NCBI GenBank assembly: GCA_041661005.1
Contig: JBAZVG010000001.1
Location: forward strand, 403,307 to 467,306
Source of the DNA: Minisyncoccota bacterium
Lineage (GTDB): Bacteria > Patescibacteriota > Minisyncoccia > Phycocordibacterales > UBA9973
DNA length: 64,000 nt
Direction: 5' to 3'
This document shows, one piece after another, positions 2,342-63,876 of this stretch. Positions within the stretch are counted from its first letter, which is position 1, and the number at the start of each line of letters is the position of its first letter. The notes below the pieces were generated by a model. The model was not told the DNA's origin, did not search any database, and was given only the letters and a program-made list of their open reading frames with translations. Position numbers and translations under genes: made by a program.

Positions 2342-3034
2342 ATGCCCGACGACCAAAACACAACCCAAAATCCAATCCCCACAGAAAACTCTATTCCAGC
2401 AAGCCCCCAAGAGCCTACCGAGCCTGCCCCTGAAAACACAGCACATTCTGAACCTGCTGATGCACTTCCTGAGGCCCCAGAAAGCTCACCGAACGACTTT
2501 TCAGTGAAAAGTAATGATATACCACCCTCAAATTCTACCCTTTCAGAGCCTTTCAGTGAGCCAAAACCTGAAGAAAAATCAGCTCCAAATGAACCTAACC
2601 CAGAGTCAGTTTCTGAGCCTGTTGAAGCCCCCGAACCCAAAACGGCTCAAATACCAGTATCTGAGCCGTTGAACTCTACGAGCGAGCCGTTAGGCGAGCA
2701 AGTAGAATTCCCGGAAACTAAAACCGAGACAAAACCAACCCCCGAAGTAAAACCTGAACCAGTAGAAACTAACCCCGTTCTTGTTTCAACGAAACCCTCC
2801 CAAAAAAATTTATGGCAAAGATTTCTAAGTAAAATACAAATTGGAAAAAGAAAAAAGTTGGATCGTGTTATGACTTTATTTCTGAAAAAATCTAAAATCA
2901 CAAACGACGAAGTCGAGAAATTTCTTCACGTCTCTGACGCCACAGCAACTAGATATCTTTCAATTCTGGAAAAGGAAGGAAAAATAAAACAGAATGGAAA
3001 AACTGGAAAAGGAGTTTCGTATTCCAGAATTTAA
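2342..3034 (+). CDS. Pro/Glu/Ser-rich low-complexity protein with C-terminal winged-helix DNA-binding domain
   Basis: Repeated SEP/PEP low-complexity N-terminus. The C-terminus EVEKFLHVSDATATRYLSILEKEGKIKQNGKTGKGVSYS resembles an HTH_24/RecG-C-type winged helix. Confidence 0.45.
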   Translation: MPDDQNTTQNPIPTENSIPASPQEPTEPAPENTAHSEPADALPEAPESSPNDFSVKSNDIPPSNSTLSEPFSEPKPEEKSAPNEPNPESVSEPVEAPEPKTAQIPVSEPLNSTSEPLGEQVEFPETKTETKPTPEVKPEPVETNPVLVSTKPSQKNLWQRFLSKIQIGKRKKLDRVMTLFLKKSKITNDEVEKFLHVSDATATRYLSILEKEGKIKQNGKTGKGVSYSRI

Positions 3035-3039
3035 TTCTA

Positions 3040-3705
3040 ATCAGGGAGTGAGTTTGCGTGCACGCACGGGTGGGTGGAGTTTTTGTGTAATCACAAAAAC
3101 TCTGGGGCAAGCACGATGGCATTTGCGCCTTCGGGAATTTCCGCTAGGGTGTCTGGGCTAAAGACGAGCGCCTGAGCAATATGAAATACTAAAATCTCAT
3201 AGCGAAAGCGACATACTAAACATGGATATGAAAAACCTGAGAGGGGTTTGTGCGGTCGGGTGGGGTGAGCCCTGTTCCGCTTTGCGGAATGCGACCGCAG
3301 GGAGCACGAACCGAGACAACGCACTGGGGAGAGGAGAATCCTCTCCCCAACTAGAAGCGGGCTTTTTCTTGAACGGCTCATTTACCAGTATTTGAGCCGT
3401 TCGAAAAAGTCCCGCTACCTAGAACTGGCGCTCGTAGCCCTAGCGGAAATTCCCGAGGCGGATGCCGAGGGTGTATTCCTTTAGACTGGACACAATGATA
3501 TGATGGACGAAGGCACCGAGCATTTGTATTTGGATTTCTCCTGCGGGCAGAATTCAGAATCTCGTCAAAAGAACATTAGTCGAGGAAAAGCGGAATCCTA
3601 ATCCCTAAAATATTTGTTCCGCTTTTCCGAGTCCATTGAATTAGCACATTAGTAGAGCGTGGTAATTAGTTTAAAGTTAAGAGGCGCGCGTAGCGTGCAC
3701 ATTAG
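3040..3705. repeat. GC-rich (about 50% GC) noncoding island of nested inverted repeats and palindromes
   Basis: Outer GCGTGCACGC-containing inverted ends at 3048..3071 and 3680..3705. A 19+8-bp long-range inverted repeat at 3133..3170 and 3428..3460. A roughly 70-bp palindrome at 3352..3422. A GGGGAGAGG/CCTCTCCCC hairpin at 3311..3333. No credible ORF: 3091..3381(-) is Arg/Cys/Ser-rich junk. Confidence 0.5.
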
Positions 3706-8226: not shown

Positions 8227-8237
8227 AACTAATCGAA

Positions 8238-8681
8238 ATGAAAAATATATTTACATTTCTAATATTTATCCTCCTCATTGTTAATTCCTATTTTACATTT
8301 GGAACATTTTTAAGTGGTGCTACTGGTGGTGGCTCTGCTGTATTTCGTTATCTTGTTCCGCTTGGAATAGCCATAATTGCTGGAATAATTGGATTATCTT
8401 CTAGAAATTCATACCAATTTGATAATGGACGTAAGATGATAATTATTGGTCTAGTCATACCTCTTATATTATTTATTTATGCATTTATTCTAAACCAGTC
8501 TGATGTTGCCAAATTCAAGCAACGTAAAGTAGATTACGAAAATTCAGCCACAATAGTTAATATTCCCCCCTATTCCTATAAGGTATACCCAAATGGAGGA
8601 TTTACTCCTTTAAATGTTTGTGATGCTGGAGCTGGAACTCTGGAATGTATTAATGCTATAAAGGTTTGGAATCAACATTAG
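8238..8681 (+). CDS. Hypothetical membrane protein
   Basis: Three hydrophobic helices. No family recognised. Confidence 0.3.
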   Translation: MKNIFTFLIFILLIVNSYFTFGTFLSGATGGGSAVFRYLVPLGIAIIAGIIGLSSRNSYQFDNGRKMIIIGLVIPLILFIYAFILNQSDVAKFKQRKVDYENSATIVNIPPYSYKVYPNGGFTPLNVCDAGAGTLECINAIKVWNQH

Positions 8682-8760
8682 TTGATACAAAACTAATGAA
8701 AGTAGTTTTTTTATCTTACATTAAGAACTACCTTTAAATTACCTTGACTGAAACAAAAAA

Positions 8761-8792
8761 ACCATAATAGACACGACCGTGTCTATTATGGT
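8761..8792. promoter_or_regulatory. 32-bp palindrome ACCATAATAGACACG-AC-CGTGTCTATTATGGT, 13 nt upstream of the PaaX-like gene start
   Basis: Perfect 15-bp arms. TATTAT inside the right arm is a possible -10. A near-identical copy lies 3' of the same gene at 9391..9422. Confidence 0.55.
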
Positions 8793-8804
8793 AACATATA
8801 AAAT

Positions 8805-9365
8805 ATGCGCTTAATTGATCAAGAGTCTAATTCAGGCAAAATAATCCGCGCGCTTGGTATCGGGATAGGGATATCCGTGGCACTAGGAAATAGGAGAACA
8901 AGCTATAAAATGACAAAAACATTAATTAAAGAAATTTTTGGTTTAAATAAACAACCCAAAAATTATTCTAGATATTTTTCTAAACTGAGAAAACAAAAGT
9001 TTGTATGTATTAAGAAAATTGACAGTGATCACATTGTGTCTCTCACAGAAAAAGGCAGAGAAGTTTTTTTAAGATTTAATTACGAAAACTTGGAAATAAA
9101 AAGAAGTAAAATATGGGATAGGAACTTTCGCATGGTTGTCTTTGATATTCCAGAAATAAAAAGAAATGCCAGAGATTCACTTCGAGATAAACTGAAAGAA
9201 ATGGGTTTGGTAAAATTCAACGATAGTGTTTGGATATATCCGTTCCCCTGCCAGCAAGAAATTGATTTTATTGCCAATTATTGGAATATAGGAAAATATG
9301 TGCATTTTGCTTTAGTTAAAAATATAACCAATAGAGATTACTTAGAAAGGTATTTTAATTTATAG
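8805..9365 (+). CDS. PaaX-like transcriptional regulator, short form (paralog 1)
   Basis: Winged-helix region (KQKFVCIKKIDSDHIVSLTEKGREVF) followed by a PaaX middle-domain-like block. IWDRNFRMVVFDIPE...LVKFNDSVWIYPFPC compares with E. coli PaaX AWDGKWLLLLSEGL...GFGALAPSLMASP. Confidence 0.5.
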   Translation: MRLIDQESNSGKIIRALGIGIGISVALGNRRTSYKMTKTLIKEIFGLNKQPKNYSRYFSKLRKQKFVCIKKIDSDHIVSLTEKGREVFLRFNYENLEIKRSKIWDRNFRMVVFDIPEIKRNARDSLRDKLKEMGLVKFNDSVWIYPFPCQQEIDFIANYWNIGKYVHFALVKNITNRDYLERYFNL

Positions 9366-9390
9366 ATATTTTTTCTTATATTTCATAAAT

Positions 9391-9422
9391 ACCACAATAA
9401 CCACGGCCGTGTCTATTGTGGT
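9391..9422. promoter_or_regulatory. Second copy of the paralog-1 palindrome, ACCACAATAACCACGG-CCGTGTCTATTGTGGT, 26 nt past the stop
   Basis: About 27/32 identical to the 8761..8792 site, itself an imperfect palindrome. It sits between convergent genes. Confidence 0.5.
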
Positions 9423-9452
9423 ATTAGTTTAACACCGCTAACATACTCCCTA

Positions 9453-20868: not shown

Positions 20869-21483
20869 TTAGTTAGATTTAATGCGTAGAGAACTAACAA
20901 TTGTGTCAAATAATTCTTGATCAAATTCTTTTCCTGACCCATACGTACCTCCATTTATAGTGACTGAATATTCTTTTCCTCTAAAAATTTCTGGTAATTG
21001 GTCTCCTCTTAAATAGCCAACTAAAAAAGGATTGCCATCGGCATCAGAAGTGGTCTCTACAGCTTTGTTGCCAAAAAGATTTATAAGTTTTGGTTCTAAA
21101 TATCCTGAATTAGTACCAGTAAGAATAAAATCCACATATTCGCTAGGTTTTAAAACTTTTATATTTGTATTATTTTGAGGCACAAAATCTCGTATATAAA
21201 TTGTAGGTGCAACTTCAGAAAGATAGCCATCACGCAATATTTTCCCCACACTTACACGGAATTCATACCCACCTTCATATCCACCCGAGGCATAAACTCC
21301 ATATCCTTGTGGTAAATCAAATTCAATTGGACCATTGCCTATTGTAATTGTATTGAAATTTTTAACTTCGGAAGTATTTTTTATTTCCTCAACATCTACC
21401 TTTTTATCGCTAAAATACCATGCACCAGCCATCGCAAGAATAACAATAACAAGAAAACTAATCAAAATATTTTGTTTATTCAT
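20869..21483 (-). CDS. Secreted hypothetical protein
   Basis: N-terminal signal/TM segment. No family recognised. Confidence 0.3.
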   Translation of the reverse strand: MNKQNILISFLVIVILAMAGAWYFSDKKVDVEEIKNTSEVKNFNTITIGNGPIEFDLPQGYGVYASGGYEGGYEFRVSVGKILRDGYLSEVAPTIYIRDFVPQNNTNIKVLKPSEYVDFILTGTNSGYLEPKLINLFGNKAVETTSDADGNPFLVGYLRGDQLPEIFRGKEYSVTINGGTYGSGKEFDQELFDTIVSSLRIKSN

Positions 21484-21542: not shown

Positions 21543-21580
21543 TTATCTAATTTTTACGCATATGCTAGAATTTCAGATAA
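21543..21580. promoter_or_regulatory. Imperfect palindrome TTATCTAA-N20-TTCAGATAA, 3' of PaaX-like paralog 2
   Basis: About 25/28 identical to the 5' site at 22205..22241 (shared GCATATGC...TTTCAGATAAGAA). Confidence 0.5.
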
Positions 21581-21588
21581 GAAATAGA

Positions 21589-22203
21589 TCAAGATAACCG
21601 AAATTGTTTCTTTAATTTCTCATCCCTTAAAATATTTTCTACCGTTAGAATTTCCACATACTTCCCTACTCCAAAGAAATCAGCAATATAAATTATTTCG
21701 TCTTCACAAGGATAGGGATATATCCAGGCAGATTTTTGAAACTGAAAAAAATCTAGTGCTTTCAAATTATAACGTAATGCTTCCCTGCCCTTGGTAAATC
21801 TCATGGGAATATCAAACATGACCAATCTCCATTTTCCATCCCATTTTTTTGGTTTACTAATCTTCATAAGCTCAATATCAAAAGCTCTTAATTTAGTTTC
21901 ACCTTTCTTGGTAATTTTAACTATCGTTTTTCCATCCTTGTCACAGACGTATTCTATTAGCTTTTGACGCTTCATGCTATCCATCACGCTACTGATTTGC
22001 TTATTGGAATATTTCTTAGAACCTTTGAACATTTTAAATACTTGCACTGCATTACCCATAACCGAAGCTCCTAGCACAAGTACAGGTATTGAAGCTAAAG
22101 CCAATACGCAAAGTGCTACCGTAGTGATCTTTGCTTCAGTGGTATCAGAATTTAAAAAATCTTTTAGTCTTTCCATGTACGAATCTTTTTTCATCTGATT
22201 CAT
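21589..22203 (-). CDS. PaaX-like transcriptional regulator, short form (paralog 2)
   Basis: KKWDGKWRLVMFDIPMRFTKGREALRYNLKALDFFQFQKSAWIYPYPCEDEI. This is the same WDGKW block as E. coli PaaX. A winged helix precedes it, and there is an N-terminal hydrophobic segment. Confidence 0.5.
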   Translation of the reverse strand: MNQMKKDSYMERLKDFLNSDTTEAKITTVALCVLALASIPVLVLGASVMGNAVQVFKMFKGSKKYSNKQISSVMDSMKRQKLIEYVCDKDGKTIVKITKKGETKLRAFDIELMKISKPKKWDGKWRLVMFDIPMRFTKGREALRYNLKALDFFQFQKSAWIYPYPCEDEIIYIADFFGVGKYVEILTVENILRDEKLKKQFRLS

Positions 22204-22204
22204 A

Positions 22205-22241
22205 TATCTGAAATTATAGCATATGCAGACTTTTCAGATAA
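22205..22241. promoter_or_regulatory. Palindrome TATCTGAAA-N18-TTTCAGATA abutting the start codon of paralog 2
   Basis: Perfect 9-bp arms. On the minus strand a TATAAT hexamer lies inside it about 14-19 nt upstream of the ATG. This is an operator-over-promoter layout. Confidence 0.55.
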
Positions 22242-22246
22242 GAATT

Positions 22247-22657
22247 CTATACTTTCATAATATATCCAAAACCATTTAATGCTGGAGTCAGATTAACATA
22301 ACTTCTGAAAAGGCGGAGGCGAGCTTGTTCTCTTTTTCTTTCATTTTCTGGTTTATCTTCTCCATTAGGGTATAACCAAAATTCATTTATGCCACTGTCT
22401 TTAGCAACTTCTTTAATGCAAGCTGAAATATATTTCATATCGACACCTTCCCTTCGGAGTTCGGGCTGGTTCTTGGAATCTTTATTGTATTCAGTGTTAA
22501 AAGTGCCAAATAGGATCTCTGGTAATTCTTTATAGTTTTTTCCAGAAGTATCTATCGCAATCACAACATGATTGAAAACATACAAAGCAACATCTTTTTT
22601 GTGCTGTTTTTTCTCAAACGAAAGATTGTGCTCTGCATTTATTTTATTTTCTTCCAT
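22247..22657 (-). CDS. Hypothetical protein
   Basis: 136-aa ORF immediately upstream of paralog 2. No family recognised. Confidence 0.3.
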   Translation of the reverse strand: MEENKINAEHNLSFEKKQHKKDVALYVFNHVVIAIDTSGKNYKELPEILFGTFNTEYNKDSKNQPELRREGVDMKYISACIKEVAKDSGINEFWLYPNGEDKPENERKREQARLRLFRSYVNLTPALNGFGYIMKV

Positions 22658-27655: not shown

Positions 27656-28369
27656 CTACTTTGTAAATTTGAAAGTGGAAAGAATTTTATTGAAAATAGG
27701 TTTATCGGTGACAAGTAAAGCAACTATATTTTTGTCATTTGAGAGATAAATTACTTTATGTTTTCCACCGAGGTCAAAAAAACCTTCTGATGGAATAACA
27801 GAACACATAGTTTCGCATTCAAATGATGATCCTTCATAATTACCAACTTTCGTTTCAGATAAATTTGTTACCTTACTAGGCATATATTGGTAATAATCAT
27901 GTTTGGTGGCATACTCGGAATTTTTTTTATCCGCTTTATTATTATAGTCGTACGCATACTGAGCATACTCCTTTGAAGTTTGATTGACTTGTATGTTAAA
28001 AACAGAAAATTGATCTCGCCACACAATATGAGACTGATGAGGAGGTCCGGGATTTCTTGAACTCAATGGATCAAATATAGTAACAAAATTTGATTTTTCA
28101 AGAGGATTTTTACTTTGTCCAGCGTCTGGATAATATCTGTCATTATTTTCTATCTCTAGGCTTACTGGGTACTTAAACTCAAACCCATATTTTACATTTG
28201 TATATGTTTTCCAATTAGAAGTATTTGTCTGTTGTGTTCCAATATCAACCACAGCCGGCGCTTCTGCTTTTTTACTTTTATAAATTAAATAACCACCGCC
28301 TCCGATAACTAATAAAGCAATAATTGATATTAATAACGGCACAACGGAACCCTTTTGTAAGTTTTTCAT
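27656..28369 (-). CDS. Secreted/membrane-anchored hypothetical protein (paralog of 12535..13011)
   Basis: Shared WKTYTNVKYGFEFKYP motif and the same C-terminal ILSTFKFTK as 12535..13011. Confidence 0.45.
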   Translation of the reverse strand: MKNLQKGSVVPLLISIIALLVIGGGGYLIYKSKKAEAPAVVDIGTQQTNTSNWKTYTNVKYGFEFKYPVSLEIENNDRYYPDAGQSKNPLEKSNFVTIFDPLSSRNPGPPHQSHIVWRDQFSVFNIQVNQTSKEYAQYAYDYNNKADKKNSEYATKHDYYQYMPSKVTNLSETKVGNYEGSSFECETMCSVIPSEGFFDLGGKHKVIYLSNDKNIVALLVTDKPIFNKILSTFKFTK

Positions 28370-36630: not shown

Positions 36631-36664
36631 TTTACTAGATTGACGACCGTTAGTTTGGTAAACA
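36631..36664. promoter_or_regulatory. Imperfect palindrome GTTTAC-N22-GTAAAC, 3' of PaaX-like paralog 3
   Basis: TTTACTAGATTGACGACCGTTAGTTTGGTAAACA is about 23/28 identical to the 5' site at 37259..37290. It lies between convergent genes. Confidence 0.5.
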
Positions 36665-36677
36665 ATCAGCTAATAAT

Positions 36678-37250
36678 CTAAGTTATTTTCTTTAAACTGC
36701 CCGTCTTGCTAATTTCAAAAATTTCCACAAATTCAAGAATTTTTAAGTTTTCCAAATCTTCAATAAAATCTTTCGGAACTTTCCCTTTCCCCATCCAAAC
36801 ACTTTGATGAATCATTCGAAATCCAAAATTTCTAATGACCTCTCTCAGCCAATTGCGCTTTCGACGCAATCTCTCGGGTATATCAAAACTTATTATTACA
36901 GAATTACCCTTATGATTCCGTTCATAAAACCTTCCGGGTAAATTATTTCTAAGTTTATTAAGTTTATCTATTCCCTTACCAGAAATCTTGAATTTATTAT
37001 TCTCTGTTTCAATAAGACCATCATGTTTCATTTTTGATATGAATATTGTCAATCTCCTTCTACTGTTCTGAAGAGCTTCTATTTTTTCTTTCCCGTCTTC
37101 AGAAATTCTTCTGCGCTTATTATACTCATAATTTATTCTACTAGAACTTGCTCCATAACCAGCAGCCAAAACTGCACCAAAGAAATAAACTTGATTCATT
37201 GCTCCTTGACATAGGAATTCTAAAGCTTTTAGTAAAATTTTTCCTCTCAT
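36678..37250 (-). CDS. PaaX-like transcriptional regulator, short form (paralog 3)
   Basis: GNSVIISFDIPERLRRKRNWLREVIRNFGFRMIHQSVWMGKG middle-domain block. A winged helix precedes it, and there is an N-terminal hydrophobic segment. Confidence 0.5.
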   Translation of the reverse strand: MRGKILLKALEFLCQGAMNQVYFFGAVLAAGYGASSSRINYEYNKRRRISEDGKEKIEALQNSRRRLTIFISKMKHDGLIETENNKFKISGKGIDKLNKLRNNLPGRFYERNHKGNSVIISFDIPERLRRKRNWLREVIRNFGFRMIHQSVWMGKGKVPKDFIEDLENLKILEFVEIFEISKTGSLKKIT

Positions 37251-37258
37251 AACTTTAA

Positions 37259-37290
37259 GTTTACTACATTGACAGTCGTTAGTATAGTAA
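37259..37290. promoter_or_regulatory. Imperfect palindrome TTTACTACATTGACAGTCGTTAGTATAGTAA, 5' of paralog 3
   Basis: Starts 9 nt upstream of the start codon. Cognate copy at 36631..36664. Confidence 0.5.
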
Positions 37291-37321
37291 GGAGTTTTTG
37301 GAAGAAATAAGAAATAAGAAA

Positions 37322-37636
37322 CTATTTTATTTTCGTATCGTAAAATTTATACATAACTAAAGCCCCGTAAGGAATTATTAGAAAAAACAAAAATTCTTCA
37401 ATCGGTAGACCTAAAATTCTTATACCAACAAGGCCATCGCCTGGAAAAATCCAATGTTGTCGATATACAGCAAAATAATCCCAAAACATTCCAAATAAAA
37501 AAATATTTAGTGTAACATATAATCTTTCCTTCCTGGAATGGTATAGATGGATGTGATACTTATATTCAATAAATATCGTTACTATAAGTACAACCACTAA
37601 AATTGTTAGATATTCTGGCATACTTTTAGATATCAA
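37322..37636 (-). CDS. Small hypothetical membrane protein
   Basis: Three hydrophobic helices. Overlaps the gyrB end by 11 nt. Confidence 0.3.
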   Translation of the reverse strand: MISKSMPEYLTILVVVLIVTIFIEYKYHIHLYHSRKERLYVTLNIFLFGMFWDYFAVYRQHWIFPGDGLVGIRILGLPIEEFLFFLIIPYGALVMYKFYDTKIK

Positions 37637-39731
37637 TTTCCGCTAGTTTTGCATTGGATTGAATAAAAGATTTGCGAGGAGGAACTTCGGAGCCCATGAG
37701 AATATCGAAAATTTTATTTGCTTCTTCAGCATCATCTATGTTTACCTTTTTGAGAACTCGATTCTTCGGATCCATCGTGGTTTCCCAAAGCTCTTCGGGA
37801 TTCATTTCTCCGAGACCTTTAAAGCGCTGAATATGTATTTTATTTGATTTAGTTTTAGCTTCTTCAGGATTTTCTTGCTCCACCGCCTCGTTGGAGTCAG
37901 GGGTGGAAGCAGGCTCTTCGACAGCCTCAATCTCACTCACATCTGTGTTCTTGCCGACAATTTTTAATTTTTCTTCGTCCGTATAAGCGTATGAAATTTC
38001 TTTACCCTTTTTTATTTTATAAAGCGGTGGCTGGGCAATATAAATATATCCAGCGTCGACAACTGCTCTAAAATATCTGTAGAAAAGCGTCAAAAGAAGT
38101 GTCCGAATGTGCGAACCGTCCACGTCTGCATCTGTCGCAATGATTATTTTATGATAACGCATCTTTGATAAATCAAAAGTGTCTCCAATCGAAGTACCCA
38201 TGGCAATGACGAGGGACTTTACTTCTTTGGAAGCAAGCATTTTGTCTATACGCGCGCGTTCAACATTTAAGATTTTTCCACGGAGTGGCAGTATGGCTTG
38301 AGTTCGGCGATCACGGCCCTGCTTTGCTGAGCCCCCAGCGGAGTCTCCCTCCACCAAGAATAATTCCGACTCTTCCGCATTCTTGCTTTGACAATCTGCC
38401 AATTTTCCCGGAAGTGTCATGCCCTCAAGAGCGCCTTTTCGTAAAATTGAATCTTTCGCAGCTTTAGCAGCCTTGCGAGCTTTCAAGGCGAGAATAGACT
38501 TGTTTATTATGGATTTGGCTTCATCGGGATTTTCTTCTAAGAAATTATTGAATGCCTCACCAAACACAGTAGCCACTGCCCCTTGAGCCTCCATACTTCC
38601 GAGTTTTGCCTTAGTTTGACCCTCAAATTGAATCTCACGCAATTTTACAGAGATAGCCACAGTCAAACCTTCCAGAACATCTTCACCAGTAAATCCCCCT
38701 TCGGACTCTTTCATCATTTCATTTTTCTTGCAGTAAGTATTCAAAGTTCTCGTGAGCGCAGTTTTGAAACCTGTCACGTGCGTACCGCCTTCAGGAGTGT
38801 TTATGTTGTTAGCAAAAGGAATAATGCGATCACTTATATCATCGACATATTGCAAAGCAATCTCTACTCCGACATTATCAAATTCTTTTTCAACATAAAA
38901 AATATTATTTTGAATTGGTTTTTGAAATTTATTATAGTATTTGATGAGAGAAACCAACCCGCCTTCAAAATAAAAAGAAACTGATGGAAGCTCTAAGCCA
39001 AGATCCCTGAAATAAAAGACGTCATTGTCGTCCATTCCTTTTTTATTATCCCATTCTCTGGCATCAATTATTAAAATTTTTAAACCCTTTACTAGATATG
39101 CCTGCTGGCGGATATGGTTAACCACTGTGTGCCAATCAAATTTAATATCTTTAAATATTTCTTGATCTGGTTCAAAAGTTATTATTGTGCCATGAAGTTT
39201 TGAACTGCCTATTTTTTTTACCGCCGATTTTTTCTTGCCTTGAGAATACTCCTGCACATAAACACCGCCATCTTTGTGAACTTCTGCCTTGCAAAAGATA
39301 GAAAGCGCATTCACAACTGACGCGCCAACCCCATGCAGACCACCAGAAACTTTGTATCCTTCTCCACCGAATTTTCCTCCGGCGTGGAGTGTGGTCATGA
39401 CTGTTTCCAAAGCTGATACTTTTGTTTTTTTATGAACATCAACCGGTATACCTCGGCCGTTATCCACCACTCGCACTCGATTGTTAGGAAGAAGCACCAC
39501 CTCAATATCATCGCAAAAACCTCCCATCGCTTCATCGCGCGAGTTGTCAAAAATCTCCCATATTAAGTGATGAAGTCCTTCCGGGCCAGTAGTCCCAATA
39601 TACATACCGGGACGGCGCCGTACGGGCTCTAAACCCTCTAAAACCGAGATATCCGAGGCATCATAATGATGAGCCCCACCAGAAGAGGCAGGGCTTTTCT
39701 TGCTATTTTCAGTGTCTTTTTCTTTGGCCAT
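37626..39731 (-). CDS. gyrB: DNA gyrase subunit B (type IIA topoisomerase ATPase subunit)
   Basis: GLHHLIWEIFDNSRDE, GGLHGVGASVVNALS and TOPRIM motifs EGDSAGGSAKQGRDR. Confidence 0.85.
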   Translation of the reverse strand: MAKEKDTENSKKSPASSGGAHHYDASDISVLEGLEPVRRRPGMYIGTTGPEGLHHLIWEIFDNSRDEAMGGFCDDIEVVLLPNNRVRVVDNGRGIPVDVHKKTKVSALETVMTTLHAGGKFGGEGYKVSGGLHGVGASVVNALSIFCKAEVHKDGGVYVQEYSQGKKKSAVKKIGSSKLHGTIITFEPDQEIFKDIKFDWHTVVNHIRQQAYLVKGLKILIIDAREWDNKKGMDDNDVFYFRDLGLELPSVSFYFEGGLVSLIKYYNKFQKPIQNNIFYVEKEFDNVGVEIALQYVDDISDRIIPFANNINTPEGGTHVTGFKTALTRTLNTYCKKNEMMKESEGGFTGEDVLEGLTVAISVKLREIQFEGQTKAKLGSMEAQGAVATVFGEAFNNFLEENPDEAKSIINKSILALKARKAAKAAKDSILRKGALEGMTLPGKLADCQSKNAEESELFLVEGDSAGGSAKQGRDRRTQAILPLRGKILNVERARIDKMLASKEVKSLVIAMGTSIGDTFDLSKMRYHKIIIATDADVDGSHIRTLLLTLFYRYFRAVVDAGYIYIAQPPLYKIKKGKEISYAYTDEEKLKIVGKNTDVSEIEAVEEPASTPDSNEAVEQENPEEAKTKSNKIHIQRFKGLGEMNPEELWETTMDPKNRVLKKVNIDDAEEANKIFDILMGSEVPPRKSFIQSNAKLAEIDI

Positions 39732-52861: not shown

Positions 52862-53734
52862 CTAAAAATTAAAAAGATTTAATTCAAAAATAAATGCCAA
52901 AAATGTTCCTAGAACCAAAAATGGAGCAAATGGAATTTCGCTTTTCATCCCCATACTGTTTATTCTACCATTTTTTGCCAGCCTCGCCGAGTCTAGGCGG
53001 GCCAGCCTCGCCGAGTCTAGGCGGGAAAGAACTACAAGCGTCACCCCGACGACAGCTCCAGACCAGAAAGCCATCACCAAACCAGATAGAGCAACAGAAA
53101 TACCGAGCAACCATCCGATGCCTAGAGAGAGCTTTGCATCCCCCAGCCCCATCCACCTGCCACGAGATATAAACCAAAAGAAAGCAAACGGGAATGCTAT
53201 GAACACACCAGAAAGAAATTCCCAAACAGTCGGGATTTGAAAATATAAAACGATAGGATTGGAAGAATCTAAAAAATTATTATGGAAAAAAAATAAACCC
53301 AGAAATGCCAGAACGCCGAAAATAAGAGAAAGCATGTCCGGAATTATTTTATGTTTCAGATCATAAGTCGCTATGACCACAAGCAGTGAAAACGCAGTTG
53401 CATAGTAAACATAAATGATGCCGAAAGATTGAATGTCTGCCAGAAAAATATCCTGGAATTTCAAAAACAGCAAAGCGAAAACGAGGCCTGTTGTAAATTC
53501 AACCAAAGGATATTGCATGGAAATTTTGGTTTTACAATTCCGGCACCTCCCCCCGAGCCATAGAAAGCTAACGACAGGTATGAGATCATACCAATGGAGT
53601 TTATTTTGGCAAGACATGCAGGCGCTCCGCCCGCCGAGAGATCTTTTTGTGTTGAGTCGATAAATTACAACATTCAAAAAACTGCCAATAGTGAGACCGA
53701 GAACAAAGAAAAAAAACCCAAGTAATAAAATCAT
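52862..53734 (-). CDS. pilD: Prepilin peptidase (A24 family)
   Basis: N-terminal Cys4 (CMSCQNK...CRNCKTK) and conserved catalytic Asp regions (DLKHKIIPD, GLGDAKL). Contains a 24-bp x2 in-frame tandem repeat. Confidence 0.85.
   Translation of the reverse strand: MILLLGFFFFVLGLTIGSFLNVVIYRLNTKRSLGGRSACMSCQNKLHWYDLIPVVSFLWLGGRCRNCKTKISMQYPLVEFTTGLVFALLFLKFQDIFLADIQSFGIIYVYYATAFSLLVVIATYDLKHKIIPDMLSLIFGVLAFLGLFFFHNNFLDSSNPIVLYFQIPTVWEFLSGVFIAFPFAFFWFISRGRWMGLGDAKLSLGIGWLLGISVALSGLVMAFWSGAVVGVTLVVLSRLDSARLARLDSARLAKNGRINSMGMKSEIPFAPFLVLGTFLAFIFELNLFNF
52977..53024. repeat. Perfect 24-bp tandem duplication (GCCAGCCTCGCCGAGTCTAGGCGG x2) in-frame within pilD
   Basis: GC-rich. Encodes LARLDSAR twice near the PilD C-terminus. 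Confidence 0.7.
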
Positions 53735-63308: not shown

Positions 63309-63419
63309 TCCACCCCGCATTCATTCTCCTCTTGAGGAGTACTCCGACCTAGGTCGGAGGGAGGTGGAAATGCATCCACCCCGTCTCGGATTACCGAGCC
63401 ACCCCTCAAGAGGGGAATT
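63309..63419 (-). repeat. GC-rich multi-hairpin mosaic element, copy C (minus orientation)
   Basis: The reverse complement reads ATTCCCCTCTTGAGGGGTGG-CTCGGTAATCCGAG-ACGGGGTGGATGCATTTCCACCTCCCTCCGACCTAGGTCGGAGTACTCCTCAAGAGGAGAATGAATGCGGGGTGGATG. It supplies the last codons and the TGA stop of the DUF559 gene. Confidence 0.75.
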
Positions 63420-63876
63420 TTAAGACACCTTTCCTTTTGTATATTGTTTCTAATACAAATTGATAAACACTAGCCAAATTTTTCTTAACTTCTATATCAA
63501 GTATCCGAACTACTTCTAAATTTAGATCTTTCATGAAAGCATCTCTTTCTGCATCATACTCCATTTTATTATCGTGGCTTGAACCATCTATTTCAAATAC
63601 CAATCCCAGTTCGGGAACAAAAAAGTCCACTATATAATTACCTATTACAACTTGTCGATCTATATCAAAGCCTAATTTATTTTTATCCTTGAATGTTTGC
63701 CAAAACAAAACTTCTGACAAATTGCCCGATTTTCTTAAATCTCTTGCTCTGTCCGTTAAAAGTTTGTTTTTTGGAATTTCCCAATAGGGATACAAGGACT
63801 TTGGATCCCATAATTCCCCTCTTGAGGGGTGGACTTTGTAATCAAAGGACGGGGTGGATGAATTCTTCTTGGGCAT
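63406..63876 (-). CDS. DUF559 (Vsr-like endonuclease fold) protein
   Basis: LRKSGNLSEVLFWQ...DRQVVIGNYIVDFFVPELGLVFEIDGSSHD...AERDAFMKDLNLEVVRI DUF559 pattern. Both ends overlap repeat-element copies. Confidence 0.6.
   Translation of the reverse strand: MPKKNSSTPSFDYKVHPSRGELWDPKSLYPYWEIPKNKLLTDRARDLRKSGNLSEVLFWQTFKDKNKLGFDIDRQVVIGNYIVDFFVPELGLVFEIDGSSHDNKMEYDAERDAFMKDLNLEVVRILDIEVKKNLASVYQFVLETIYKRKGVLKFPS
63812..63866 (+). repeat. GC-rich multi-hairpin mosaic element, copy D (partial left half)
   Basis: ATTCCCCTCTTGAGGGGTGG-ACTTTGTAATCAAAG-GACGGGGTGGATGAATTC. Lies inside the annotated 5' end of the DUF559 ORF. Confidence 0.7.

Follow-up and report, generated by a model that had tools for sequence, protein, structure and literature searches.

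Paired private palindromes bracket minimal PaaX-like genes, candidate autoregulatory cassettes of Patescibacteria

RESULTS

Three paralogous genes each lie between two copies of a palindrome

The window analyzed here is a 64,000-nt (64-kb) stretch of contig JBAZVG010000001.1 from a Minisyncoccota bacterium (assembly GCA_041661005.1), with a G+C content of 37.7%. It carries three paralogous genes predicted to encode minimal PaaX-like proteins, and each of these genes is bracketed by two similar palindromes, one just before its start codon (5′ copy) and one just after its stop codon (3′ copy). A tblastn search of the window returned no copy of this type of gene beyond the three paralogs. The genes and their palindromes are as follows.

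8805..9365, plus strand: paralog 1, 186 residues, with a divergent predicted winged helix at about residues 30 to 80, a linker helix, and a Cas2-like PaaX_M domain at 103 to 183
21589..22203, minus strand: paralog 2, 204 residues, predicted minimal PaaX-like protein
36678..37250, minus strand: paralog 3, 190 residues, the most divergent of the three
8761..8792: paralog 1 5′ palindrome, perfect, with 15-nt arms that are 100% complementary and 2 nt between them
9388..9425: paralog 1 3′ palindrome, with 19-nt arms that are 89% complementary
22205..22241: paralog 2 5′ palindrome, reading TTATCTGAAAAGTCTGCAT then ATGCTATAATTTCAGATA in gene orientation and ending 1 nt before the ATG
21543..21580: paralog 2 3′ palindrome, 9 nt past the stop codon
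37259..37292: paralog 3 5′ palindrome, imperfect, with the core ACGACTGT and with TAAACT at its right end, 7 nt before the ATG
36631..36664: paralog 3 3′ palindrome, 14 nt past the stop codon, between convergent genes

All six sites were found where the original prediction, made by a model from the sequence alone, had placed them, and an inverted-repeat search recovers those of paralogs 1 and 2. The 3′ palindrome of paralog 1 lies 25 nt past the stop codon, in the gap that separates this gene from the convergent rpoD gene, and two of the three 3′ copies indeed lie between convergent genes, as had been stated. The two copies of each pair had also been described as 80 to 85% identical. This holds for paralog 1, whose copies (8754-8793 and 9384-9423) share 83% identity over 40 nt at a spacing of 630 bp, but not for paralogs 2 and 3, for which the range is 70 to 78%: the copies of paralog 2 (21544-21583 and 22205-22244) are 73% identical over 40 nt at a spacing of 661 bp, and those of paralog 3 (36631-36664 and 37259-37292) are about 75% identical over 40 nt at a spacing of about 628 bp. 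Both sites of paralog 2 contain the core GCATATGC, which occurs nowhere else in the window, and no further copy of any of the six sites or of their half-site clusters was found anywhere in the 64 kb. Rfam gave no match at any of the sites.

The flanks of 59 crude gene calls were then compared, using for each gene the 105 nt ending just inside the start codon and the 105 nt running from just before the stop codon. The three paralogs obtained flank-repeat scores of 22.5, 17.5, and 13.5, against a background of at most 11. The single higher score has a trivial cause, belonging to a tandem-paralog pair at 650-1384; since the three paralogs otherwise top the ranking, chance repeats were ruled out. 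The tandem paralogs themselves (650-1384 and 1402-2073) share 72% identity over 229 nt at their starts and have an identical 26 nt around each start codon.

The encoded proteins resemble PaaX shortened to its DNA-binding and Cas2-like domains

The Cas2-like middle domain of PaaX (PaaX_M, PF20803; cut-off of 24 bits) is matched by paralogs 1, 2, and 3 with scores of 70.1, 69.4, and 38.7 bits, respectively, and by all 66 aligned relatives. An AlphaFold2 model of paralog 1, with a mean predicted local distance difference test (pLDDT) score of 69, shows two helices and a beta-hairpin wing at residues 30 to 80 (pLDDT of 58 to 72), a linker helix, and a beta-alpha-beta-beta-alpha-beta domain, with scores above 83 over residues 108 to 183. 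When this model was submitted to Foldseek, the top solved structure was E. coli PaaX (8a39; E = 7e-4, 152 columns), followed by the PaaX-like protein Rv0674 and several Cas2 proteins. The original prediction of PaaX-like proteins with a winged helix plus middle domain is supported by the PF20803 matches of all three proteins, by the structural model, which has a predicted winged helix, and by the top fold match. The W-D-x-x-W block that it took to be shared is not present in paralog 3. An N-terminal hydrophobic stretch was considered as a possible membrane anchor, an option that was not adopted; the stretch, for which the model has low confidence (residues 1 to 36), more likely forms the first helix of the winged-helix domain, as it does in PaaX.

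The profile searches also marked the limits of this kinship. PF07848, which describes the N-terminal winged helix of PaaX, is matched by none of the 66 members, and other winged-helix models match weakly. The PaaX equivalog model TIGR02277 gave 24.7 and 16.4 bits for two of the paralogs and no match for paralog 3, against a cut-off of 264.55. Membership in the PaaX family, as originally predicted, was upheld by PF20803. The C-terminal effector domain (PaaX_C, PF08223) was not matched in the three paralogs or the 66 aligned relatives, and the proteins stop about 70 to 80 residues past the start of the middle domain. Taken together, these sequence and model data indicate that the three proteins are minimal PaaX-like proteins, made of a predicted winged-helix DNA-binding domain and a Cas2-like dimerization domain, without the effector domain.

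PaaX itself is the phenylacetyl-CoA-responsive repressor of the paa catabolic genes in E. coli and Pseudomonas (PDB 8a39 and 3l09). The window proteins appear to share its order of domains, a predicted N-terminal winged helix followed by the Cas2-like middle domain (PF20803, with 8a39 as the top fold match). However, they measure about 190 to 205 residues instead of about 300 to 316 and have no effector domain, so that no ligand input is evident. No paa genes were found among the neighbors in the window or at orthologous loci, where the neighbors are rpoD/dnaG, rpoB, and gyrB. Because the PaaX_C domain is missing, PF07848 is not matched, and TIGR02277 scores fall far under the cut-off, the sequences indicate that the paralogs are not PaaX proper. 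Nor do they appear, judged in the same way, to be CRISPR-associated Cas2 proteins: the Cas2 model PF09827 is nearly reached by paralog 3 only (21.6 bits; cut-off of 23.8), all three paralogs fall under the cut-off of TIGR01573, and a repeat search of the window found no CRISPR-like array. A link to defense systems or phages was considered and dropped, as PADLOC returned weak Cas2-domain matches only, a PHROGs search gave no match, and no relatives were found in viral contigs.

The family is large. One search retrieved 1,013 proteins with E values up to 1e-5, and an exhaustive search yielded 1,827 clusters at 50% identity with E values up to 1e-10. Nearly all members have 180 to 220 residues. 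Their annotations read “hypothetical” or “PaaX family” and, occasionally, “Cas2.” A genome has several paralogs, each with private sites.

Paired palindromes recur across the family and co-vary with the protein

The layout was examined in 80 loci with relatives of the paralogs, fetched from species-representative genomes (individual loci are designated below by numbers with the prefix L). All of them come from Patescibacteria, mostly Nomurabacteria and other Parcubacteria. A flank-comparison script detected a shared palindrome of 30 to 45 nt in most loci, typically placed about 40 nt before the ATG and 0 to 50 nt past the stop codon. Under stricter criteria, paired palindromes were present in 59 of 81 genes, that is, in 56 of the 78 loci with enough flanking sequence and in the three window genes. 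Four orthologs of paralog 3 fetched separately (L161-L164) all have the pair, with the 3′ copy 2 to 24 nt past the stop codon. Further modules consisting of a gene and its paired palindromes are thus found in related genomes, where the original prediction had suggested that they be sought.

The association also holds when the palindromes are taken as the starting point. The loci and the window together, 524 kb in all, contain 49 long palindromes, of which 42 are immediately next to a family gene. Another 509 kb, from rpoD loci, show palindromes of the family type only beside family genes, the other palindromes being mostly classical terminators. Third copies aside (see below), no orphan site was found in the 64 kb or in about 1 Mb of related loci. 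A generic terminator or repetitive extragenic palindromic (REP)-like motif, the generic genome-wide alternative that the original prediction itself had raised, was ruled out: the window holds no extra copies, the palindromes in about 1 Mb stand only beside family genes, and they are not followed by a T-run.

Sites and proteins vary together. The core of the palindrome is clade specific and its outer arms are locus specific, and both track the protein tree. The core ACGGCCGT belongs to the paralog 1 and paralog 3 clades and GCATATGC to the large paralog 2 clade, with CACGATCGTG and GCGATCGC or GCTATAGC found in other clades. Orthologs of paralog 1 (L001-L014) keep the 5′ site as ccATAATAGACACGGCCGTg...TGGTAATAT-N6-7-ATG, and orthologs of paralog 3 (L161-L164) keep the same 5′ site with a clean ACGGCCGT core. 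Variable residues of the predicted recognition helix change in step with the outer arms, pairing the helix KQISSVMDSMKRQ with the arm TTATCTNAAA, RQI(S/N)TTLTNL with TGATACACA, and LRRYKF(V/I)R with TGTTGTGAA. A correspondence of this kind would be expected of proteins that each recognize the sites beside their own gene. The original proposal that every paralog has a private pair of sites, differing from those of the other paralogs, draws support from the repeat search, the flank ranking, the cores, and this co-variation alike.

Two departures from the simple pair were seen. At five loci (L020, L035, L059, L073, and L017), both copies are perfect palindromes and yet differ from each other at 2 to 5 mirrored positions. 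Furthermore, a third cognate palindrome brackets an adjoining unrelated gene in 6 of the 59 loci (L046, position 2093; L062, 4125; L044, 1653; L075, 2050; L069, 2369; L071, 2502). The genes bracketed in this way encode a membrane protein and RHH-like, HD-domain, and nucleoside-phosphorylase-like proteins; L071 differs in that the duplication concerns the promoter copy itself. The segment duplicated in L062 and L069 runs 25 to 80 nt past the palindrome. Because of these third copies and duplicated flanks, we infer that the palindromes may also act as points of recombination or duplication or as operators of neighboring genes.

The 5′ copy overlaps a predicted leaderless promoter

Shine-Dalgarno motifs are nearly absent from the window, where such a motif stands at positions −16 to −5 in no more than about 5 of 63 gene calls. 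Many first genes instead have TGnTAnnnT 6 to 10 nt before the ATG; examples of TGnTAnAAT lie upstream of 20869-21483, 22247-22657, 27656-28369, 37626-39731, and 52862-53734, all on the minus strand. Given the scarcity of Shine-Dalgarno motifs and the −10 boxes 6 to 10 nt before the ATG, leaderless mRNA seems to be the rule in the source genome. A literature search on leaderless or Shine-Dalgarno usage in Patescibacteria found nothing.

In the GCATATGC clade, the center of the palindrome lies 19 to 20 nt before the ATG, and its right arm contains ATGC-TAnAAT, an extended −10 element. A TAnnnT box at the fixed offset is present in sense orientation in the 5′ copy of 25 of 29 loci of this clade and in outward orientation in 2 of 29; in the 3′ copy, it occurs outward in 2 of 29 and inward (antisense) in 10 of 29. 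In paralog 2 itself, the extended −10 element TGCTATAAT occupies 22221-22213 on the minus strand, and the TATAAT that the original prediction had noticed inside the 5′ site is present at 22218-22213, with TGC before it. In the paralog 1 clade, the center lies 27 nt before the ATG and TGGTAATAT-N6-7-ATG is kept at the right edge of the palindrome. A promoter scan detected TAGACA-18-TAACAT with a preceding TG in the paralog 1 site; this promoter-like element (TAGACA-18-TGgTAACAT, 8768-8797, plus strand) overlaps the 5′ palindrome and ends 7 nt before the ATG. In the paralog 3 clade, TAAACT, TAAGAT, or TATACT stands 6 to 7 nt before the ATG. The −10 element thus falls within the 5′ palindrome or at its margin, 6 to 9 nt before the ATG, and we read the 5′ copy as the operator of a leaderless promoter, an arrangement that would give autorepression.

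PaaX offers a precedent for this arrangement, being a dimeric winged helix-turn-helix (wHTH) repressor that binds the operator TGATTC-N27-GAATCA and represses its own promoter by hindering RNA polymerase (PMC9493321). The resemblance to the PaaX operator that had been predicted is borne out, as the family sites span about 36 to 40 bp with widely spaced half-sites and the operator of PaaX is likewise long (about 39 bp), with widely spaced inverted half-sites, and serves to block RNA polymerase at its own promoter (PMC9493321).

The 3′ copy is a candidate auxiliary operator

Classical terminators with a GC-rich hairpin and a T-run exist in these genomes, but the 3′ copies do not resemble them: they are AT-rich, the T content following them is 0.35 against a background of 0.29, only 8 of 59 are followed by at least 6 T in 10 nt, and terminator scans called none at the three window 3′ sites. 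Their sequences thus indicate that the 3′ copy is not a canonical intrinsic terminator. Arm positions pair in 80.7% of cases in the 3′ copies, compared to 75.8% in the 5′ copies, the 5′ copy giving up symmetry to fit the −10 box.

A different reading would make the palindromes hairpins and not protein sites, with the 3′ copy forming a terminator or a stabilizing mRNA stem-loop and the 5′ copy a leader hairpin that acts on translation or stops read-through. The paralog 1 sites fold strongly as RNA, with free energies of −20.7 kcal/mol (z score of −9.8) for the 5′ copy and −17.5 kcal/mol (z score of −4.8) for the 3′ hairpin; the 5′ site of paralog 1 read on the minus strand is a hairpin followed by a T-run; and the loci with mirrored changes keep both copies self-complementary. 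However, the sites of paralogs 2 and 3 fold weakly (−5 to −10 kcal/mol, z scores of about −2), with only the outer arms pairing, and the 3′ copies have no T-run. G-T and A-C mismatches on the sense strand, counted as 56 versus 48 in the 5′ copies and 48 versus 33 in the 3′ copies, are equally common, so that there is no bias toward G-T. With the −10 element inside the 5′ copy, a sense transcript would not contain that −10, and the hairpin reading leaves the tracking of the recognition helix by the hairpin sequence without explanation. A sense-strand RNA hairpin therefore found no support, and we regard the hairpin reading as very improbable. On the minus strand, the 5′ palindrome of paralog 1 followed by TTTTTTGTTT is terminator-like, with a T-run, and could stop antisense transcription or read-through from rpoD.

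Alternatively, the proteins may be ordinary local regulators whose true targets are neighboring or distant genes, the 3′ copy being the operator of the adjoining transcription unit. This would fit the six loci with a third site, which lies about 100 to 120 nt upstream of the adjoining cargo gene, and the 3′ copy of paralog 2, which stands upstream of the next co-directional gene, in many genomes rpoB. On the other hand, many 3′ copies, among them two of the three in the window, have convergent genes on either side, and the gene downstream of paralog 2 has a separate promoter (TGGAAA-17-TATAAT, 21520-21492). The rarity of an outward −10 in the 3′ copies (2 of 29) and the lack of orphan sites in the 64 kb or in about 1 Mb of related loci, third copies aside, also argue against this possibility, which we consider improbable.

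Most likely, the 3′ copy is an auxiliary and probably stronger operator. It could anchor a loop or form a roadblock that closes off the far end of the cassette. The 3′ palindrome of paralog 2 contains a −10-like box (TGCTAGAAT, plus strand, 21563-21571) that points back into the gene. Such an inward −10, present in about a third of the GCATATGC-clade 3′ copies including that of paralog 2, may form a repressible antisense promoter.

Genes and palindromes come and go together

The surroundings of paralog 1 were examined in 80 metagenomic loci around rpoD homologs that are 77 to 97% identical. The gene order rpoC-dnaG-rpoD-(slot)-DsbA-like is kept, and paralog 1 occupies the slot in 7 of the 68 loci in which the slot could be read. 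Genomes with filled and empty slots are interleaved by rpoD similarity. In most genomes with an empty slot, the convergent stop codons lie 6 to 130 nt apart and the gap contains nothing or a classical terminator; a solo palindrome was never seen in an empty slot. Cassettes resembling those of the window are also found in other places: paralog 1-like cassettes (67 to 78% identical) in unrelated contexts (L006 and L009-L014), a paralog 2-like cassette in a slot that is empty at 33.3 kb of the window (L064), and paralog 3-like cassettes in other contexts (L163 and L164). Conservation starts and stops at the palindromes. The module is accessory, the gene and both palindromes coming and going together, and the alternative view of the original prediction, that these are exchangeable cassettes, gains real support from the presence and absence of the module across related genomes. 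At the same time, at least 10 genomes have an ortholog of paralog 2 upstream of rpoB, and in L161 and L162 paralog 3 comes after gyrB; from this synteny, many copies are judged to be old and vertically inherited.

The slot past rpoD (8227-9452 in the window; L081-L160 elsewhere) is an accessory-gene hotspot in Nomurabacteria-like genomes. It holds RAYT/IS200-like Y1 transposases in L096, L116, L143, and L150, flanked in L143 by tgagcgagggGAGccctcgctca hairpins; HicAB in L113; a gene with a DUF559-like (PF04480-type) endonuclease domain, homologous to 63406-63876 of the window, in L092 and L130; and a fragment of an rve (integrase-type) transposase in L085. In L005, the whole paralog 1-type cassette is flanked by a perfect direct repeat of 53 to 56 nt derived from the 3′ end of rpoD (2869-2925 and 3626-3681), and L094, from the same population, shows this as well. 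The left copy, which does not code for protein, directly adjoins the DsbA-like gene at its stop codon. The repeat resembles a scar left when a recent insertion or recombination event at the end of rpoD restored the reading frame; the two loci may originate from one sample and thus amount to a single observation.

These observations raise the question of whether the unit is a mobile element, in which the PaaX-like protein would bind the terminal palindromes and these would be cut or recombined, by its Cas2-like domain or by an enzyme enlisted from the host, so that the unit is excised and re-inserted. Several features would be accounted for: the occupancy of 7 of 68 syntenic rpoD loci with no solo palindrome in the empty slots, the presence of transposase, HicAB, DUF559-like, and rve sequences in the same slot elsewhere, the related cassettes in unrelated contexts, the conservation bounded by palindromes, and the rpoD-end duplication of L005 and L094 as a mark of recent insertion. 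Long perfect palindromes stay symmetrical even where the two copies differ. In addition, all 66 aligned members share the Asp of the F-D-I-P motif, and this residue aligns with the Asp of VVYDV in the Sulfolobus Cas2 protein 3exc. However, E. coli PaaX, a plain repressor, is acidic at the same position in the alignment that accompanied the original prediction, so the Asp need not mean a nuclease. No short target-site duplications were found outside the palindromes, the 53- to 56-nt duplication of L005 and L094 being the one exception, and no transposase-type Pfam match or recombinase was found. No near-identical copies were found within a genome; the highest pairwise identity in the family, 87%, is between orthologs of different assemblies. 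The synteny of paralogs 2 and 3 over many genomes, the fusion of the 5′ copy to a promoter, and the lack of relatives in viral contigs speak against mobility as well, and ordinary recombination acting on any small accessory gene could give such insertions and deletions. We thus regard a mobile element of this kind as unlikely. Likewise unlikely is a minimal selfish cassette, in which the wHTH-Cas2-like protein would promote excision, insertion, or copying, perhaps via a hairpin or cruciform, with autorepression as its housekeeping side; it would account for the variable occupancy of the slot, for gene and sites always occurring together, and for the arms staying symmetrical.

RAYT genes are flanked by cognate REP palindromes, and the IS200/IS605 elements are a related point of reference. 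The modules resemble them in that a single gene of about 0.6 to 0.7 kb stands between two similar, lineage-specific palindromic hairpins, and even the rpoD slot is the same (L143), but they have no HUH/Y1 motifs, their palindromes are not dispersed, and the 5′ palindrome is a predicted promoter. Integron cassettes (attC) and the pdif modules of Acinetobacter are small units delimited by imperfect palindromes. They share with the modules the presence and absence between genomes and, occasionally, arrays of the form palindrome-gene-palindrome-gene-palindrome (L046, L062, and L075), whereas the modules have neither an integrase nor conserved arms of the Xer type, their sites are private and co-vary with their own protein, and they are scattered singly and not arrayed beside an integrase. 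By these sequence comparisons, the modules are neither insertion sequences nor integron cassettes, and a transposon-like mechanism is unsupported.

Other features of the window

Some unrelated features were noted in passing. The segment 3040-3700 is non-coding, has a G+C content of 52 to 54% against 37.7% for the genome, and gave only chance hairpin matches in Rfam; it is probably an unannotated structured RNA. The 30-nt palindrome AACGGCTCAnnTACCAGTATnTGAGCCGTT occurs twice, at 2641-2670, in the Pro/Glu-rich part of an open reading frame (2342-3034) that ends in a small winged helix, and at 3372-3401, in the GC-rich stretch. A perfect tandem duplication of the 24-nt GC-rich unit GCCAGCCTCGCCGAGTCTAGGCGG is found at 52977-53024, inside the open reading frame 52862-53734.

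DISCUSSION

We favor, with moderate confidence, the view that each module is a self-contained autoregulatory cassette composed of a minimal PaaX-type repressor and an auxiliary operator. The protein, presumably as a homodimer, would recognize a palindrome of 32 to 40 bp, its winged helices reading the locus-specific outer arms while the clade-specific core of 6 to 10 bp would lie under the dimer axis. One copy of the palindrome would be the gene's own promoter, with a −35-like element and a −10 inside it or at its edge, giving rise to a leaderless mRNA. With the region from −35 to −10 covered by bound protein, RNA polymerase would be excluded, resulting in negative autoregulation, as for PaaX at Px. 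The second copy, 2 to 50 bp past the stop codon, usually without a −10 and more symmetrical, would act as an auxiliary operator that raises the local concentration of repressor, loops to the promoter copy about 630 to 660 bp away, or keeps transcription from passing into or out of the cassette. Where this copy has an inward −10, as in about a third of the GCATATGC clade, it may also be a repressible antisense promoter. As promoter, operator, and boundary would travel with the gene, the module would be portable, in keeping with its accessory distribution in Paceibacteria genomes.

Several points weigh against this view. The only targets detected are the gene's own flanks; it is hard to see what purpose a repressor acting on nothing but itself would have, and any advantage that it gives the cell is conjecture. 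The third copies indicate that other genes, too, can be served or flanked by the sites. That one dimer reads both copies is not sufficient to explain the mirrored differences between perfect palindromes, which hint at an additional force keeping the arms symmetrical, for instance a hairpin or cruciform function or arm-to-arm conversion. The rules used to call promoters in Patescibacteria assume sigma-70-like recognition. Finally, the center-to-center spacing of the two copies shows no helical phasing, a test that is uninformative at about 600 bp and lends no support to looping.

The nearest analogy for an autorepressor with an auxiliary operator is the CI repressor of phage lambda. CI binds the operators OR and OL and loops the DNA around cI-rexAB; this cooperative looping sharpens autoregulation, and the immunity regions are exchangeable. 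Here too, a repressor gene stands between putative cognate operators, the first coinciding with its promoter and the second lying past its far end, with private specificities. In contrast to lambda, the modules have no phage context and no Cro-like partner, carry one palindrome per end and not operator triplets, and encode a protein of another fold, and the putative loop of about 0.63 to 0.66 kb would enclose only the repressor gene. From PaaX, to which the proteins are closest in fold, the family differs in having many apparently orthogonal paralogs per genome, a candidate second operator past the stop codon, and Patescibacteria as hosts.

A literature search found no published description of the family, no paper joining PaaX with Cas2, and, among the Patescibacteria papers listed, none mentioning PaaX. 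The architecture is robust, family-wide, and so far undescribed, while the core mechanism proposed for it is conventional. The family looks like the wHTH plus Cas2-like core of PaaX without the ligand-binding domain. Should the mobile-cassette reading be true, a Cas2 fold would have a role in DNA mobility outside CRISPR, and the modules would make up a new class of mobile elements. The autoregulatory model, for its part, predicts promoters that are embedded in operators and leaderless, and a gene whose own product shields it on both sides. The family would then supply hundreds of orthogonal repressor-operator pairs of about 600 bp each, self-contained and amounting to a natural parts library. 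Patescibacteria have tiny genomes with few recognizable regulators and yet harbor this large family; if the model holds, the modules would represent a first concrete regulatory circuit for the phylum.

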